From Escherichia coli (GTDB lineage: Bacteria; Pseudomonadota; Gammaproteobacteria; Enterobacterales; Enterobacteriaceae): 46,463 nt of DNA. Positions 1-46,329 of this stretch are shown piece after piece. Position 1 is the stretch's first letter, and each line of letters starts with the position of its first letter. Where the stretch lies: assembly GCF_003334255.1 (NCBI RefSeq), contig NZ_QOWU01000044.1; one strand, given 5' to 3'. The translations under genes and the position numbers were made by a program. The notes under the pieces were generated by a model. That model was not told the DNA's origin and made no database searches. It saw nothing but the letters and a program-made list of their open reading frames with translations.

Positions 1-77
1 AGCTGATAGAAACAGAAGCCACTGGAGCACCTCAAAAACACCATCATACACTAAATCAGTAAGTTGGCAGCATCACC
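1..77 (-). mobile_element. IS1 insertion sequence, terminal portion only (left inverted repeat plus start of insA region); element continues beyond window start
   Basis: Reverse complement of 1..77 reads GGTGATGCTGCCAACTTACTGATTTAGTGTATGATGGTGTTTTTGAGGTGCTCCAGTGGCTTCTGTTTCTATCAGCT, which matches the IS1 terminus as I remember it. The exact junction is ambiguous over ggtgat (71..77) because it overlaps ompF sequence. Confidence 0.85.
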
Positions 78-248
78 GTTTCCGCCGTAACTGTTTACAC
101 CATTGTCTTTAGAAAAATAATGCAGACCGACAGCTTTACCGTACAGATCTACTTTGTTGCCATCTTTGTTATAGATTTCTGCAGCGTTTGCAGTACCTGC
201 TACTAACAGAGCAGGGACGATCACTGCCAGAATATTGCGCTTCATCAT
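78..248 (-). pseudogene. ompF: ompF 5' fragment (signal peptide plus about 35 mature residues of outer membrane porin F), truncated by the IS1 insertion
   Basis: ORF 51..248 translates [47 protein letters not shown]..., the OmpF N-terminus. After GGNGD the frame runs into IS1 sequence (AANLLI then stop) instead of MTYARLGF. Confidence 0.85.
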
Positions 249-397
249 TATTTATTACCCTCATGGTTTTTTTTATGACACCTGCCACTGCCGTCAATAA
301 GTTCTGTCAATAAAAATTTACGGAACTATTGATGAGAGTTTGGTGTCTTTATGTGTCTGCAGGCATCTTTCCATTCAAACTAACGTTTCGCTACCGT

Positions 398-460
398 GAA
401 AGTGCTACAAAGATAAAGATTTGGTTTCAAAAAGAAAAAATATGTAACCAAAAGTAAAAT
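398..460 (-). promoter_or_regulatory. OmpR binding sites F1-F3 of the ompF promoter
   Basis: Reverse complement contains TTTACTTTTGGTTACATATT, TTTTCTTTTTGAAACCAAAT and CTTTATCTTTGTAGCACTTT, the tandem OmpR boxes upstream of ompF as I remember them. Confidence 0.75.
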
Positions 461-810
461 TTAAGGAACTTTGTGAACACCGTCATATTTCCATAGAAGC
501 GTGATGATATTTACAGCAATTTTTATCTATTTATATGATTTCCTTATATTTAAATTAACTAAACGGAAATTTTGTTTCTGATGGAAACTTTATCGACCTG
601 GCACTAAATCCTCGTTCAGACATCCAGAATGCCAAAAAATAGTATGAAAATTGTGCTATCAGCTAAGAAAAAACTAATCCGCAATAAGAATCCAGGTTAT
701 TTTTTGTGCGTAAATGTTGCAATGTAATATTCCATAACAGGATGATCGTTATGGCGGGGTTGCAAATAGATTGCTTGACTTAACAAACAGATAACTTGAC
801 AGAAAGGATA

Positions 811-835
811 AAAAAGAGCCAGCAGGCGCTGGCTC
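811..835 (-). terminator. Rho-independent terminator downstream of asnS
   Basis: Inverted repeat gagccagc / gctggctc with a 4-nt loop; the A-run at 811..815 is a U-run on the minus-strand transcript. Confidence 0.75.
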
Positions 836-849
836 TTTGAGGAAGAAAA

Positions 850-2250
850 TCAGAAGCTGGCGTTGCGCGGAGTACGTGGGAACGGAATCACATCACGCAC
901 GTTTTGCACGCCAGTTACGTAAGCAATCAGGCGTTCAAAACCAAGACCGAAACCTGAATGCGGAACAGTACCGTAGCGACGCAGATCGCGATACCACCAG
1001 TAATCTTCTTTATTCAGGCCCATTTCCAGCATACGCTCGTCCAGAACGTCCAGACGTTCTTCACGCTGGGAGCCACCAATGATCTCACCGATGCCCGGAG
1101 CCAGAACGTCCATAGCCGCAACGGTTTTACCGTCTTCGTTGAGGCGCATATAGAACGCTTTAATATCTTTCGGATAGTTTTTAACCACTACCGGTGCTTT
1201 AAAGTGTTCTTCCGCCAGATAACGCTCATGCTCAGAAGAGAGATCGACGCCCCAGTAAACCGGGTTTTCAAACTTCCTGCCGCAGTTTTCGAGAATGGTC
1301 ACTGCGTCGGTGTAATCCACCTGCGCGAAATCGGCCTCAATGAAGCGTTCCAGACGTGAAACGGCATCTTTATCTACGCGTTCAGCGAAGAATTTCATGT
1401 CGTCTGCGCGTTCTTCGAGAACCGCTTTGAAGACATATTTCAGCATGGCTTCAGCCAGACCCGCGATATCGTTCAGGTTAGCAAACGCCACTTCCGGCTC
1501 CAGCATCCAGAACTCCGCCAGGTGACGGCTGGTGTTGGAGTTTTCAGCACGGAAAGTCGGGCCGAAGGTATAAATTTTGGATAATGCGCAAGCGTAGGTT
1601 TCGCCGTTCAACTGGCCAGATACGGTCAGGAAAGACTCTTTACCAAAGAAGTCTTTGTCGAAATCCACTTTGCCCTGATCGTTACGCGGCAGATTTTCCA
1701 GATCCAGCGTAGAAACGCGGAACATTTCGCCAGCCCCTTCGGTATCAGACGCAGTAATCAGTGGCGTTGAAACCCAGAAGAATCCCTGCTCGTTAAAGAA
1801 GCGATGCAGCGCCTGCGCCAGCGTATGGCGAACGCGCGCGACGGCACCAATCAGGTTTGTGCGCGGACGCAGGTGAGCGACTTCACGCAGATACTCAATG
1901 CTGTGGCGTTTTGCCGCCATCGGGTAAGTGTCTGGATCTTCAACCCAACCAGCAACTTCAACCTTGCTGGCCTGAATTTCAAATTGTTGCCCCTGGCCCG
2001 GCGACGCCACGACTTTACCCGTCACAATGACCGAGCAACCGGTGGTCAGACGCAGGACGTCTTCATTGTAATTGGGCAGAGAATTATTGATGACAGCCTG
2101 TACAGGATCAAAGCAGGAACCGTCATAAACGGCGAGGAAGGAGATGCCAGCTTTTGAATCTCGGCGGGTACGTACCCATCCGCGTACGGTGACTTCGCTG
2201 TCAACGGCTACGCGGCCCTGGAGTACGTCGGCTACAGGCACAACGCTCAT
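850..2250 (-). CDS. asnS: Asparaginyl-tRNA synthetase
   Basis: Translation [25 protein letters not shown]...[11 protein letters not shown] (466 aa from the internal Met). The ORF-track start at 2295 is an upstream in-frame extension. Confidence 0.96.
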
Positions 2251-2418
2251 AATATTCTCTCTGTTAATAGTCGGAAAAAATAAACACTTGTCCACCCGTA
2301 AATGGGGGGATACCTATGTTACCTGGCATCTGCAATCAGACAAGCAGAATTCGCAAATGCAGCGAAAGATTTCGGAATTAAAGGTAAAAAAAGGGAGCCG
2401 ATTAGCTCCCTGATGATA

Positions 2419-3621
2419 TTAACTGGCTTTTTTAATATGCGGAAGGTCGAACGCTTTGCGCAGCGCCCGAACAAACGCTTTATCGTGGCAGATAGTTTTG
2501 CCAGGGCTGTCAGAAAGTTTCGCCACCGGTTTACCGTTACACTCTACCAACTTAATCACAATATTCAGGGGTTTTACCTGGGGGATATCGCAGGTCAGGC
2601 GAGTCCCAATACCAAAACTTAATTGCACGCGGGAAGAGAAGTGGCGGTATAGCTCAACCGCTTTGCGTAAATCCAGATTGTCAGAGAAAACCAGCGTTTT
2701 ACTCTGTGGATCAATTCCCAGCTTTTCATAATGTGCAATGGCTTTTTCACCCCATTCAACCGGGTCGCCAGAGTCATGACGCAGGCCCTGATACCGACTA
2801 GCGAACTCGACACCGAAATCACGCAGGAAAGCATCCATAGTGATGCAGTCGGTTAATGCAATGCCAAGTTGGTCGGGATACTCTTCCAGCCAGGCAGCAA
2901 GTGCAGCTCGCTGGCTGTTGGCTAGATCCGGGCTGATTTGCTGATGTGCCTGGAACCATTCGTGTGCCTGTGTTCCCATCGGCGTGAGGGAAAGCCGACG
3001 CGCCAGATCGTAGTTGCTGGTGCCCACAAACCAGGATTCCTGTTGCAGACGCTTAACGATGGTTTCTTGTACTTCGCGAGAAAAACGGCGACGGGTGCCA
3101 AAATCCATCAGATGGAAGCGCGACATATCAAGACCGGCGGTTAACGCCGAGAAGTCGACTAATTTGCTTTCCAGCGTGTCGAGGGCTTGCGCAACGTCGG
3201 CCTGCGGTGAGCGATAGCGATGTACCATTTCACTGATAACCGCCAGCAAAGGAACTTCCCAGAGGATGACTTCACGCCACGGGCCGCTTAAACGAATATC
3301 CAGCTTGCCATTATCGTTGGACACGGTGACTTGTTCCGGGTTAAAGCGGAACTCGCGTAACCAGTTAAGATAGTCGGCCTTAAAGAAAGGCAGGGCAGAA
3401 AGCCACTGATATTCATCATCCTGCAGGCGCAGGTGCTGCATCGCCTGAACCTGTTCACGAATAGCATCGGCATAAATACCCAGCAGATCGTCACCTCGGC
3501 AACGAAACTCCGCCGCGACATGCACATCGTAATAGTGATGAAACACGGCTTGCTGCATATGCAACTTATAAGCATCTGTATCCAGCAACGAGTGCAGAAC
3601 AGGAGAAGCGAATTGTGTCAT
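2419..3621 (-). CDS. pncB: Nicotinate phosphoribosyltransferase
   Basis: Translation [31 protein letters not shown]... (400 aa); true start is the internal Met of the 416-aa track ORF. Confidence 0.95.
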
Positions 3622-44022: not shown

Positions 44023-44682
44023 TTAATCGCGGCTAGCGAAGCCCAGAATGCTCAGCAGGCTGACGAAGATGTTGTACAGCGAAACATACAGGCTAACCGT
44101 GGCACGAATATAGTTCGTCTCACCGCCATGAATGATGTTGCTGGTTTCAAACAAGATAGCGCCAGAGGAGATCAGAATGAAGACCGCGCTGATCGCCAGA
44201 TGCAGAGCAGGCAGCTGCAGGAAGATATTCGCAACCATACCAATCAGCACCACCACAATACCCGCCATCAGCATACCGCCGAGGAACGACATATCTTTGC
44301 GGGTGGTCAGCACATATGCAGAGCAGCAGAAGAACACTAACGCCGTTCCGCCCAGTGCCATAGCGATTACGTCACCCATTCCGGCAGACAGATAGGTGTT
44401 CAGAATAGGTCCGAGGATATAACCCAGAAAACCGGTAAAGGCGAATGCGGAGATAATCCCGGTCGGCTTATTCGCCGTTTTATAGGTCAGGAACATCAAA
44501 CCATACATACCCACCAGCGTCAGAATCAGACCCGGAGATGGCAGCATCAGCACCGTACTGGCAGTTGCGGTAATCGCCGAAAAGGCCAGCGTCAGGCTCA
44601 GCAGAAAATAGGTATTACGCAGCACCTTATGGGTGCTAAGCAGTGATGTACGGTCATGTGAAGAACTAACAATACGATCCAT
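44023..44682 (-). CDS. yccA: FtsH modulator YccA (Bax inhibitor-1 family membrane protein)
   Basis: 219 aa, [30 protein letters not shown]...; seven hydrophobic segments. Confidence 0.96.
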
Positions 44683-44844
44683 TGAGTCACTCTCTATGAC
44701 AGATGTAATTAATTAAGCAGCATAATGATAATGCGTAAGGGCACCCAGAAGTTTTACCCATCTTTACGCATTTGATCTGGAACAGGTTTAACAGCGGATT
44801 ATCAGGTCATTAAGCAAATATAACGCCCTGAGAATTTCGACAGG

Positions 44845-44880
44845 CAAAAGAAAAAGGGGTTAGCATTTAGCTAACCCCTT
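44845..44880 (-). terminator. Rho-independent terminator downstream of the serT remnant
   Basis: aaggggttagc-attta-gctaacccctt hairpin, followed on the minus strand by TTTTCTTTT. Confidence 0.75.
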
Positions 44881-44888
44881 ATCTTATT

Positions 44889-44948
44889 TGGCGGAAGCGC
44901 AGAGATTCGAACTCTGGAACCCTTTCGGGTCGCCGGTTTTCAAGACCG
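44889..44948 (-). tRNA. serT: tRNA-Ser(UGA) 3'-terminal 60-nt fragment; not a complete tRNA (5' acceptor, D-arm and half the anticodon stem are missing); prophage attachment core remnant
   Basis: Reverse complement CGGTCTTGAAAACCGGCGACCCGAAAGGGTTCCAGAGTTCGAATCTCTGCGCTTCCGCCA matches the 3' part of serT. Upstream sequence (44949 onward) has no segment able to pair with the acceptor 3' strand. Confidence 0.85.
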
Positions 44949-45089
44949 AAGAAAAACAAATGAAAATCAGTGTAATACGTGAATCTGCTGAAAATTTAAT
45001 TAAATTTAACACCAAGAAAAATCAAGGTGTTAGGAAGTTGCTCATAGCTAGTATACCAAGTATTTTTGCCAGAAAATTTTCTGTATTGC

Positions 45090-46109
45090 CTACTTGCTAA
45101 CCACGAGCGGCAGATCCAGTGTTGGTGTGATTTTTGTTTTACGATCGTAAATCAACACCTGATTTTCTGTTTTATGCCCGCTGAAAATTTGTTTGTCGCG
45201 ACTGCTGCCTTCGTAATCTGAGATCCCCTTGGCTTTTATGTCGTGAAAATTGCACCCGAACGGAACGCCAACTTTTTGCTCGGCTGAGCGTTTAGCCTGA
45301 TTCCACCAGTTGTTCAGCGTTTTAGCTATGACTTTCCCGCCTTTGGTTGTATTGATCACATATTCGCATGTACAGGAAGATACATTTCGGGCTAACTGGA
45401 TCGCTGTACGTAATCGCGGTGACCATTCCTTGATTTGTTTGGTGCCGGTTTTGTTTTGCTCAATGTAGATCCCTTTATCCATAATATCCTGCCATTTCAA
45501 CTCAAGCACATCACCGAGCCTTGCCGCACAGAGATAGGAAATCTCCATTGCAATGCGTAACTGTGGAATTGCTTCCGCATATATCGCTGCATACTGTTCA
45601 TCGGTGATGTAAACAGTGCGGGCTTTAAGAGAGAATTTTCTGACTCCTTTACATGGGTTATTCTTCACGTATCCACGCTCATATCCCCACCCGTATACTC
45701 GACTCAGGCTTGCCAGTTCATGATTTGCCTGGGTCTTGCTCTCAAGCCCTCGTTTATCCATGAAAATTCTTACCTGCTCAGTTTTGACATTATCAGCAAG
45801 CACTTTTCCGAATACCATCAGCAACGCCTTCTGATGTTGTCGATAATCTTTTTGGGTTCGGGGGGCCAGTTCTGTAAATGCAGGGGAGTCCATAAACATG
45901 TGCCATAATTTAGCTACGGTCATTATGTTGTGGAGTTTTGCTTTTTCCAGTTCATAATTTTGCCAGACTTTAGCTACGCTGGTTTTCCGCACTCTTCCTA
46001 GCCCTATAGTTCTTGTACTTCCTTCTGGTTTCCACACGTAACTGTAACCATTCGATCTAACCCGCGGTGGCAGTACATTATCTTTTTTATTTTTTCTTGG
46101 TCTTCCCAT
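45090..46109 (-). CDS. int: Phage tyrosine integrase (lambda Int family)
   Basis: 339 aa; N-terminal MGRPRKNKKDNVLPPRV resembles the lambda Int arm-binding N-terminus; C-terminal region has an R...H..R...Y catalytic pattern (LGDVLELKW, HDIKAKG, SGHKTENQVLIYDR). Confidence 0.92.
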   Translation of the reverse strand: MGRPRKNKKDNVLPPRVRSNGYSYVWKPEGSTRTIGLGRVRKTSVAKVWQNYELEKAKLHNIMTVAKLWHMFMDSPAFTELAPRTQKDYRQHQKALLMVFGKVLADNVKTEQVRIFMDKRGLESKTQANHELASLSRVYGWGYERGYVKNNPCKGVRKFSLKARTVYITDEQYAAIYAEAIPQLRIAMEISYLCAARLGDVLELKWQDIMDKGIYIEQNKTGTKQIKEWSPRLRTAIQLARNVSSCTCEYVINTTKGGKVIAKTLNNWWNQAKRSAEQKVGVPFGCNFHDIKAKGISDYEGSSRDKQIFSGHKTENQVLIYDRKTKITPTLDLPLVVSK

Positions 46110-46329
46110 TGTTCAGTGCCTCAAAATCGGGTTCAGCAGAAACCAGTTCAGATGTTTTTGGCATCGTTGTCAGTCCGTGTGGAATATCCCTGCGTAGAAC
46201 TATTGGTTCGTTTTTAGGACCGATTACAAATGGGATGCCGTGCAGTCTTAACTGGTGTTGCTGTTTTGTGTATCGCTCGTATTTCGTGATCTCTTTAATC
46301 TCTGCTGGAGATAGAGTTAATTCGTACAT
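46087..46329 (-). CDS. xis: Excisionase-like protein
   Basis: 80 aa, MYELTLSPAEIKEI...NNGKTKKK; sits upstream of int and overlaps its start by 23 nt as in lambda xis-int; loosely lambda Xis-like at both termini. Confidence 0.65.
   Translation of the reverse strand: MYELTLSPAEIKEITKYERYTKQQHQLRLHGIPFVIGPKNEPIVLRRDIPHGLTTMPKTSELVSAEPDFEALNNGKTKKK

Follow-up and report, generated by a model that had tools for sequence, protein, structure and literature searches.

The attachment site attP of phage lambda has the layout P'3-P'2-P'1 - H' - core - H2 - P2 - H1 - P1, with P1 and the P' sites in direct and P2 in inverted orientation, and its P arm reads P1-H1-P2-X1/X1.5/X2/F-H2-core; the roles of these sites are described in PMC4880445. 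Lambda Int is heterobivalent, and the lambda int gene abuts P'. In E. coli O157:H7 EDL933, prophage CP-933M has been placed between yccK and tRNA-SerT (PMC5552260). CP-933M shares its integration site and its element type with the prophage studied here, and phage Evi (LR597642) is of the same element type, with an Int that is 97% identical and an attP arm that is ∼85-90% identical.

Phages ST64B, vB_EcoS-689R5, ZF40 and Fostie encode Ints with 42-55% identity to the Int of the present locus. Like the present prophage, they have two or three arm-type repeats in tandem on the side of the core towards the tRNA 3' end; they also carry an inverted and a direct copy, ∼45-56 bp apart, on the anticodon side. 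Their int genes stand beside the tandem repeats in the lambda manner, across the core from the int gene of the present locus, and their arm motifs differ (TTTTCTCA, TATTATGAA and ATATTAGGAA), the 689R5 motif ATTCCAAG resembling the motif TATACCAAG described below. ST64B integrates in a tRNA-Ser gene that we take to be serU, and 689R5 is by our own identification also a serU phage, from an annotated tRNA-Ser-CGA beside mtfA and a tRNA-Asn gene.

The segment analysed here occupies positions 44949-45089 of a window of 46,463 nucleotides, the window being the whole stretch of E. coli DNA under study (contig NZ_QOWU01000044.1). Sequence comparison makes it likely that this segment is the int-proximal arm of attL, the counterpart of the lambda P arm, of a CP-933M/Evi-type lambdoid prophage seated in the serT anticodon loop, with two IHF-consensus sites and TATACCAAG as its candidate working parts. 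The order core - IHF - (inverted site) - IHF - direct site matches the lambda P arm, the Int aligns with lambda Int along its full length, and the other arm of the prophage is also lambda-like in having three tandem direct sites that an IHF consensus separates from the core. The locus differs from lambda in its arm motif (TATACCAAG as against AGGTCACTAT), in its core, which is a tRNA anticodon stem-loop within a 65-bp identity block instead of 15 bp, and in its tighter spacing, the two IHF sites being 55 bp apart without the ∼45-bp Xis/Fis segment that lambda has between H2 and P2. Moreover, int abuts a P-type arm here and P' in lambda, and the inverted P2 of lambda has no counterpart in the window lineage.

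The arm is a further example of the well-known lambda-style kind, one without earlier dissection. The database records and literature searched contained no annotation or paper on the att arm sites of serT, CP-933M or Evi, and nothing relevant came from searching the literature on serT att arms, on DUF4224 excisionases and on the motif strings. The finding matters little beyond annotation. E. coli prophages commonly use serT as an integration site, and a map of att-arm sites would be of use in delimiting them, in recognising tandem insertions and in designing excision and integration assays.

Limits of the arm and its core

The flank of the junction is E. coli chromosome with yccA (44023-44682, minus strand), followed by a displaced copy of host serT (tRNA-Ser UGA; 44889-44948, minus strand), which retains the 3' 60 nt from the anticodon stem to CCA and lacks the 5' 28 nt. 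Directly 3' of this fragment on the minus strand, beyond the phage arm, the terminator scan located the host serT terminator hairpin (44854-44880, minus strand), a bidirectional stem-loop with an 11-pair stem on both strands. The truncation of serT explains why ARAGORN returned no complete tRNA in the window. The opposite end of the prophage was read from JE86-ST05 (NZ_AP022815), in which the serT-side junction is 100% identical to window positions 44600-46463 (1,864 bp) and the far junction was reached ∼50 kb along the prophage (L004). Positions 44889-44948 are identical (100% match) to L004:1655-1714, which is part of an annotated 88-nt tRNA-Ser at that end.

When positions 44690-45300 were compared by megablast with 5,426 complete E. 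coli genomes, the unoccupied serT loci matched query positions 1-259, ending at 44948, and the whole junction was carried by 748 of the genomes. The int stop codon occupies 45090-45092 in the ORF list, which is +142 when the first phage base (44949) is counted as +1. Since the empty-site homology stops at 44948 and the int stop begins at 45090, 44949-45089 is exactly the phage arm from core to int; the 141-bp AT-rich arm between tRNA core and int of the preliminary description is thereby borne out. Its composition is 71% A+T (A58 T42 G23 C18), with 41% A on the plus strand. The promoter and terminator scan gave nothing within 44949-45089, its sole hit being the host serT terminator, and an Rfam scan of 44600-45300 with E up to 1 gave two sub-threshold chance matches, both outside the arm.

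Comparison of the window with the JE86-ST05 (L004) and Evi (L001) records defines the common core region as a 65-bp block (44884-44948, unstranded) that is identical in attL (the window), attR and attP. The anticodon stem-loop (ccggt-tttcaag-accg; 44933-44949, unstranded), read directly from the sequence, presumably holds the core-type Int sites, and the attB identity stops one base short of the end of its stem. At the far end of the JE86-ST05 prophage, the intact 88-nt tRNA-Ser consists of host 5' sequence joined to the phage-borne 3' 60 nt and is followed by a phage-borne terminator; the phage supplies the part of the tRNA that runs from the crossover to the 3' end, and the tRNA gene is therefore restored. 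An intact tRNA at the far junction, together with an identity that ends at the anticodon stem, assigns the site to the anticodon-loop class of tRNA integration sites. As this class is a known one, the crossover is placed in the anticodon loop, where by analogy we infer a 7-nt overlap at 44938-44944 flanked by core-type Int sites. On the phage side, ACCGAAGAAAAA (44945-44956, plus strand) is the presumed C' core-type half-site, as it mirrors ACCGGCGA on the tRNA side, and the sequence A[A/G]GAAA at +1..+6 is seen again in ∼8 of ∼20 lineages.

Predicted integrase sites, IHF-consensus sites and the family template

The predicted arm-type Int site of the arm is TATACCAAG (45052-45060, plus strand; +104), the putative equivalent of lambda P1, as suggested by its motif and by an orientation shared with tandem copies in the far arm. 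The far arm bears three tandem copies of the TATACCAAG family in the orientation of the window copy. They read ATATACCAAT, GTATACCAAG and GTATACTAAG in attR of JE86-ST05, beside the phage-borne terminator and tRNA 3' half, and the same three copies are found in Evi attP, in which both arms are contiguous; at the far junction of JE86-ST05, aaATATACCAATtaGTATACCAAGtGTATACTAAGag lies immediately outside the tRNA-Ser and its terminator. A repeated arm-type motif that is distinct from the core is hence common to both arms. An unbiased search of the reconstructed 339-bp attP ranked the ATACCAAG family, with 5 copies, first among the repeats whatever the word length or setting tried, and three occurrences of an exact 8-mer of this family have P=0.003, while the mismatch-tolerant TATACCAAG family reaches only P=0.05-0.13 in shuffles of the single attP. 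In the window alone TATACCAAG is not enriched (2 matches with ≤1 mismatch vs 6.6 expected), so that the repeat becomes visible only when the other arm is added. The TATACCA of the arm site is invariant in 12 variants of the window arm. A second, weak direct arm-type-like site, AACACCAAG (45008-45016, plus strand), has two mismatches to TATACCAAG and is uncertain; it reads AACACCTAG and AACCTCTAG in sister variants.

Among four phages whose DNA beyond the att site is unrelated cargo, the shared sequence starts exactly at the first TATACCAA copy, which argues that this copy is the functional edge of the far arm. The DNA just beyond the far arm is annotated as an EspV effector fragment in Evi (L001:2748-2930) and in many E. 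coli prophages, and other carriers of the att module have unrelated cargo in its place, for example a YkgJ-family gene in JE86-ST05. Since differing cargo adjoins the same att module, the far arm also appears to be the boundary of cargo exchange.

Scanning for the IHF consensus WATCAR-N4-TTR gave two exact matches in the 339-bp attP against 0.06 expected per attP, and the same scan of lambda attP, the positive control, gave H1, H2 and H' and nothing more. Within the arm, the candidate equivalent of lambda H1 is the exact match AATCAAGGTGTTA (45020-45032, plus strand; +72), and that of H2 is AATCAGTGTAATA (44965-44977, plus strand; +17), which has one mismatch, ATA standing in place of TTR. In the other arm, the minus strand has the exact consensus AATCAAGGGGTTA where the phage-borne tRNA 3' end meets the phage-borne terminator, so IHF-consensus sites are present between the core and the arm-type sites. 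AAAATCA (44963-44969), AGAAAAATCA (45015-45024), TTAGG and TATACCA are invariant in the 12 arm variants, and substitutions in the 45020 site are confined to the degenerate R and N positions; as these variants are closely related, their invariance is weak evidence. The same scan found no exact IHF consensus in the closest phage relatives, ST64B, 689R5, ZF40 and Fostie. The Fis consensus is GNNNAWWWWWTNNNC, and inspection of the arm by eye gave no match to this form of it.

In the phage-borne terminator/tRNA region (L004:1579-1655 in JE86-ST05 and L001:2960-3040 in Evi), the few bases by which phage CCCCTTGATTATTTGG differs from host CCCCTTATCTTATTTGG create the exact minus-strand consensus AATCAAGGGGTTA. 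Most related elements have a one-mismatch version of it at the same place.

Conservation beyond the closely related variants was followed in IMG/VR, which was scanned for copies of the anticodon core whose next base is not that of the host. The scan gave 62 loci and, after removal of near-duplicates, 24 template arms, defined by IHF consensus at +17 and +71/+72 (+1 = 44949). With ≤1 mismatch allowed, the consensus is present at +17 in 23/24 and at +71/+72 in 23/24 of the template arms; 15 unrelated arms on the same core, used as negative controls, have ≥2 mismatches (≥3 at +17) at scattered positions. Mean pairwise identity is 46% in a 19-arm subset in which the window lineage is counted once. 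Information content is 1.12-1.15 bits at the IHF consensus columns (ATCA, TTA) vs 0.42 elsewhere, with further peaks at ∼+41..48 and ∼+104..111. The family template accordingly reads IHF at +17, an inverted arm site at ∼+41, IHF at +72 and a direct arm site at ∼+104, which is the layout of lambda in both order and orientation.

An inverted 8-9/9 copy of the element's own +104 site is found at +37..+55 in 14/20 other lineages, and within +39..+51 in 11 of those 14, the chance of an inverted match of ≥8/9 being 0.14 per lineage. The arm motif itself varies by element, as in TATACCAA (inverted TGGTATAT), ATATTCTT (inverted AAGAATAA) and TATATTACA, and wherever both arms are available the other arm of that element repeats the +104 motif three times in tandem. 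The majority of IMG/VR prophage contigs have been cut off at the int stop. Two IMG/VR elements with Ints 76-77% identical (L083, L084) offer no comparable arm, as int is followed there by a terminator and cargo genes. The same rigid template is shared by other IMG/VR elements on the tRNA-Ser(UGA) core (e.g. L090, L101, L136, L144), several of which use TATACCAA, and this template in many dissimilar elements provides a natural series for the co-variation of arm motif and Int N-terminal domain.

Most of these elements retain the inverted site at +39..+49, unlike the window lineage. In the window, the slot of the inverted site (44987-45000, plus strand) reads GCTGAAAATTTAAT, and in the window lineage (the window, Evi, L126, L138 and L145) an inverted copy at +41 (cf. 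TTGGTATAT) is missing, the match of 6-7/9 being at chance level. Judged from these alignments, the inverted site at ∼+41 is lost in the window lineage, and its excision assembly can therefore not be copied from lambda.

Two further observations were made on the IMG/VR loci. In L100, L116 and L143, three TATACCAA left-arm copies face ATTCTT-type right-arm sites; as the arms come from different elements, these loci are probably tandem-prophage junctions at one tRNA-Ser site. Tandem serT insertions have been reported (PMC10132054). The right arms of L090, L091, L103 and L127 have, at ∼+150..+170, a conserved CTGTATAAAA beside TGACTGAT..CTGCTA, which looks like a LexA-box-like or promoter element and has no counterpart in the window lineage.

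The GAAAA(T) words

The preliminary description had drawn attention to clustered GAAAA(T)-containing motifs in the arm. All four strings that it quoted are present, and the clustering holds, GAAAA starting on the plus strand at 44951, 44962, 44990, 45016 and 45072, with a single reverse copy at 45077. Five copies compare with 0.98 expected from dinucleotide-preserving shuffles. The corresponding P is ∼2e-4 if the word is taken as chosen beforehand, 0.018 for any non-self-overlapping 5-mer reaching five copies (best-word correction) and 0.35 when all 5-mers, homopolymer-like words included, are counted; GAAAAT occurring three times has P=0.15 after best-word correction. GAAAATTT is repeated exactly at 44990 and 45072, and the element common to the repeats is only 5-6 bases long. 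The enrichment of GAAAA in the arm is thus real though modest.

The five copies sit in differing elements, which argues that the words are heterogeneous and not the site of one protein. Copy 1 (44951), abutting the anticodon stem, is probably part of the C' core-type half-site. Copies 2 (44962) and 4 (45016) each supply the A-rich flank 5' of one of the two IHF-consensus sites, and the ATCA that follows them is nearly invariant; the quoted motifs aaatGAAAATCAG and ccaaGAAAAATCAAGG are these same flanks of the WATCAR-N4-TTR matches at +17 and +72. Copy 3 (44990) lies within the slot in which relatives carry the inverted arm site, and copy 5 (45072) makes up one half of the palindrome CAGAAAATTTTCTG that closely precedes the int stop. 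The G of copies 2, 4 and 5 is kept in only 6-11% of other lineages, the ATCA and TTA being strongly conserved.

That the words themselves are the integrase arm-type motif, as had been proposed, could be argued from five copies in one orientation within 141 bp, which is above chance, and from the exact GAAAATTT repeat. Comparison of the two arms decides against it. GAAAA(T) has zero copies on either strand at the opposite junction of JE86-ST05, and likewise zero in the other arm of Evi attP. The preliminary description had itself named absence from the other junction as grounds for refutation. The motif that both arms have in common is TATACCAAG, which it had not listed. Besides the poor retention of the G in copies 2, 4 and 5, sister variants change copy 2 to TAAAAAT, copy 3 to TTAAAAG and copy 5 to GAAATTT. 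An arm-type role of GAAAA(T) is on these grounds highly improbable. Its likening of the arm to integrase arm-type and IHF binding sites survives in another form, since IHF-consensus sites and a predicted arm-type site do occur there.

The GAAAA(T) motif appears to be mostly a by-product. An enrichment without function of its own, arising from the A-rich strand of the att arm and from a preference for A-tracts 5' of IHF sites, has not far from an even chance of being the explanation. The 41% A of the plus strand, the P of 0.35 over all 5-mers and of 0.15 for GAAAAT, and a family consensus that is generally A-rich at +4..+8 and +13..+17 all agree with it; five copies are still unusual when self-overlapping words are excluded (P=0.018), and the strand bias of 5:1 also speaks against it. 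In the reading preferred here, the words are a mixture made up of a core-proximal half-site, two IHF A-tract flanks, one half of a palindrome and, in the vacated slot, a word that is still unexplained.

The slot word has a further candidate role. The words at ∼+32 and ∼+43, and maybe that at +124, could be sites of the DUF4224 excisionase or phased A-tracts that pre-bend the arm and replace the lost inverted site. GCTGAAAATTTAAT indeed fills the slot in which 14/20 other lineages have an inverted arm site; sister variants show word pairs at 10-11 bp spacing (CAAAATAG-N-CGAAAAGTT, CGAAAAGTAG-CTGAAAAATT and GGAAAAGTG-TTAAAAGAT); both copies of L145, at +42 and +124, read AAAAGAT; and lambda, too, has its Xis sites as direct repeats in the P arm (PMC4880445). 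Yet the +32 copy of the window itself is degenerate (GTGAATCTG), conservation along the arm is lowest in this region, the single co-variation in L145 may be due to chance, and the literature search gave no paper with the sequence specificity of any DUF4224 protein. We regard such a role as unlikely. Somewhat less probable again is the wider proposal that in the CP-933M/Evi lineage (G)AAAA(G/T) words at a spacing of about one helical turn have taken the place of the P2-type site, serving as DUF4224 sites or as a built-in bend, and that excision proceeds without a P2-type Int bridge. If true, the replaced P2-type site together with an int on the opposite side of the core would make a rewired variant of the lambda intasome.

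The perfect palindrome CAGAAAATTTTCTG (45070-45083, unstranded), which contains copy 5 and the reverse copy, separates the arm-type site from the int stop. Its counterpart in Evi is CCAGAAAATTTTCTGG, other variants have it in imperfect form, and it gave no terminator-like call. Two other symmetrical sequences were considered as functional elements and rejected, as neither is conserved in Evi: the AT-rich perfect 16-bp palindrome AAATTTAATTAAATTT at 44992-45007, and a 6-bp inverted repeat AACACC...GGTGTT at ∼45008-45033.

Integrase, neighbouring gene and proposed working

The int gene (45090-46109, minus strand; ORF with Pfam PF00589) encodes a 339-aa lambda-type heterobivalent tyrosine integrase. 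By BLASTP and phmmer it aligns along its full length to lambda Int (E=1.4e-19, PDB 1z1b), including residues 1-55 with the arm-binding N-terminus, where the pattern aligned with lambda is MGRxR..LPP..NGY.Y...GLGR.R. A Pfam search of Int gave PF00589 only and did not detect the lambda arm-binding domain family; the case for an arm-binding N-terminus accordingly comes from the pairwise and PDB alignments, by which Int has an N-terminal arm-binding domain in addition to the catalytic domain. The N-terminal strands of Int co-vary with the arm motif, YSYVWKP going with ...CCAAG motifs and TRYYYKP with ATATTCTT; the 689R5 Int also has the YSYVWKP strand.

Upstream of int, an 80-aa DUF4224 protein (46087-46329, minus strand; ORF with Pfam PF13986) is presumed from this position to be the excisionase. 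Its ORF overlaps the int start by 23 bases (46087-46109), like xis and int of lambda.

The int gene is on the anticodon-side arm in the window lineage and in L110, and, as in lambda, adjoins the three tandem sites in L090, L091, L103, L096, L144, ST64B, 689R5, ZF40 and Fostie. Because int stands on the opposite side of the core relative to its relatives (including L005-L008) and to lambda, the att module is flipped relative to int. An anticodon-side int in L095, L100 and L135, first guessed from 'TTACATCACAGG' ends, was dropped, as tblastn found no Int homologue there. The missing inverted site and the flipped int position are small and testable oddities of the window lineage.

Outward from the core, the proposed arrangement is the half-site ACCG|AAGAAA, IHF at +17, the vacated slot at ∼+41, IHF at +72, the direct TATACCAAG at +104 and the int stop at +142. 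For this scheme we infer both the protein binding and the point of crossover from sequence. The N-terminal domain of Int would bind TATACCAAG at +104 and the three tandem copies of the far arm, and its C-terminal domain the anticodon-stem core. Bends made by IHF would fold the arms back such that arm-bound Int reaches the core, and strand exchange would take place in the anticodon loop. The DUF4224 protein would presumably act as excisionase at some point from +30 to +70.

The same int gene is split by two IS600 copies in strains 90-3040 (NZ_CP027459, L002:20401-23908) and 2013C-3492, and for this reason the prophage copy of these strains is probably locked in place.
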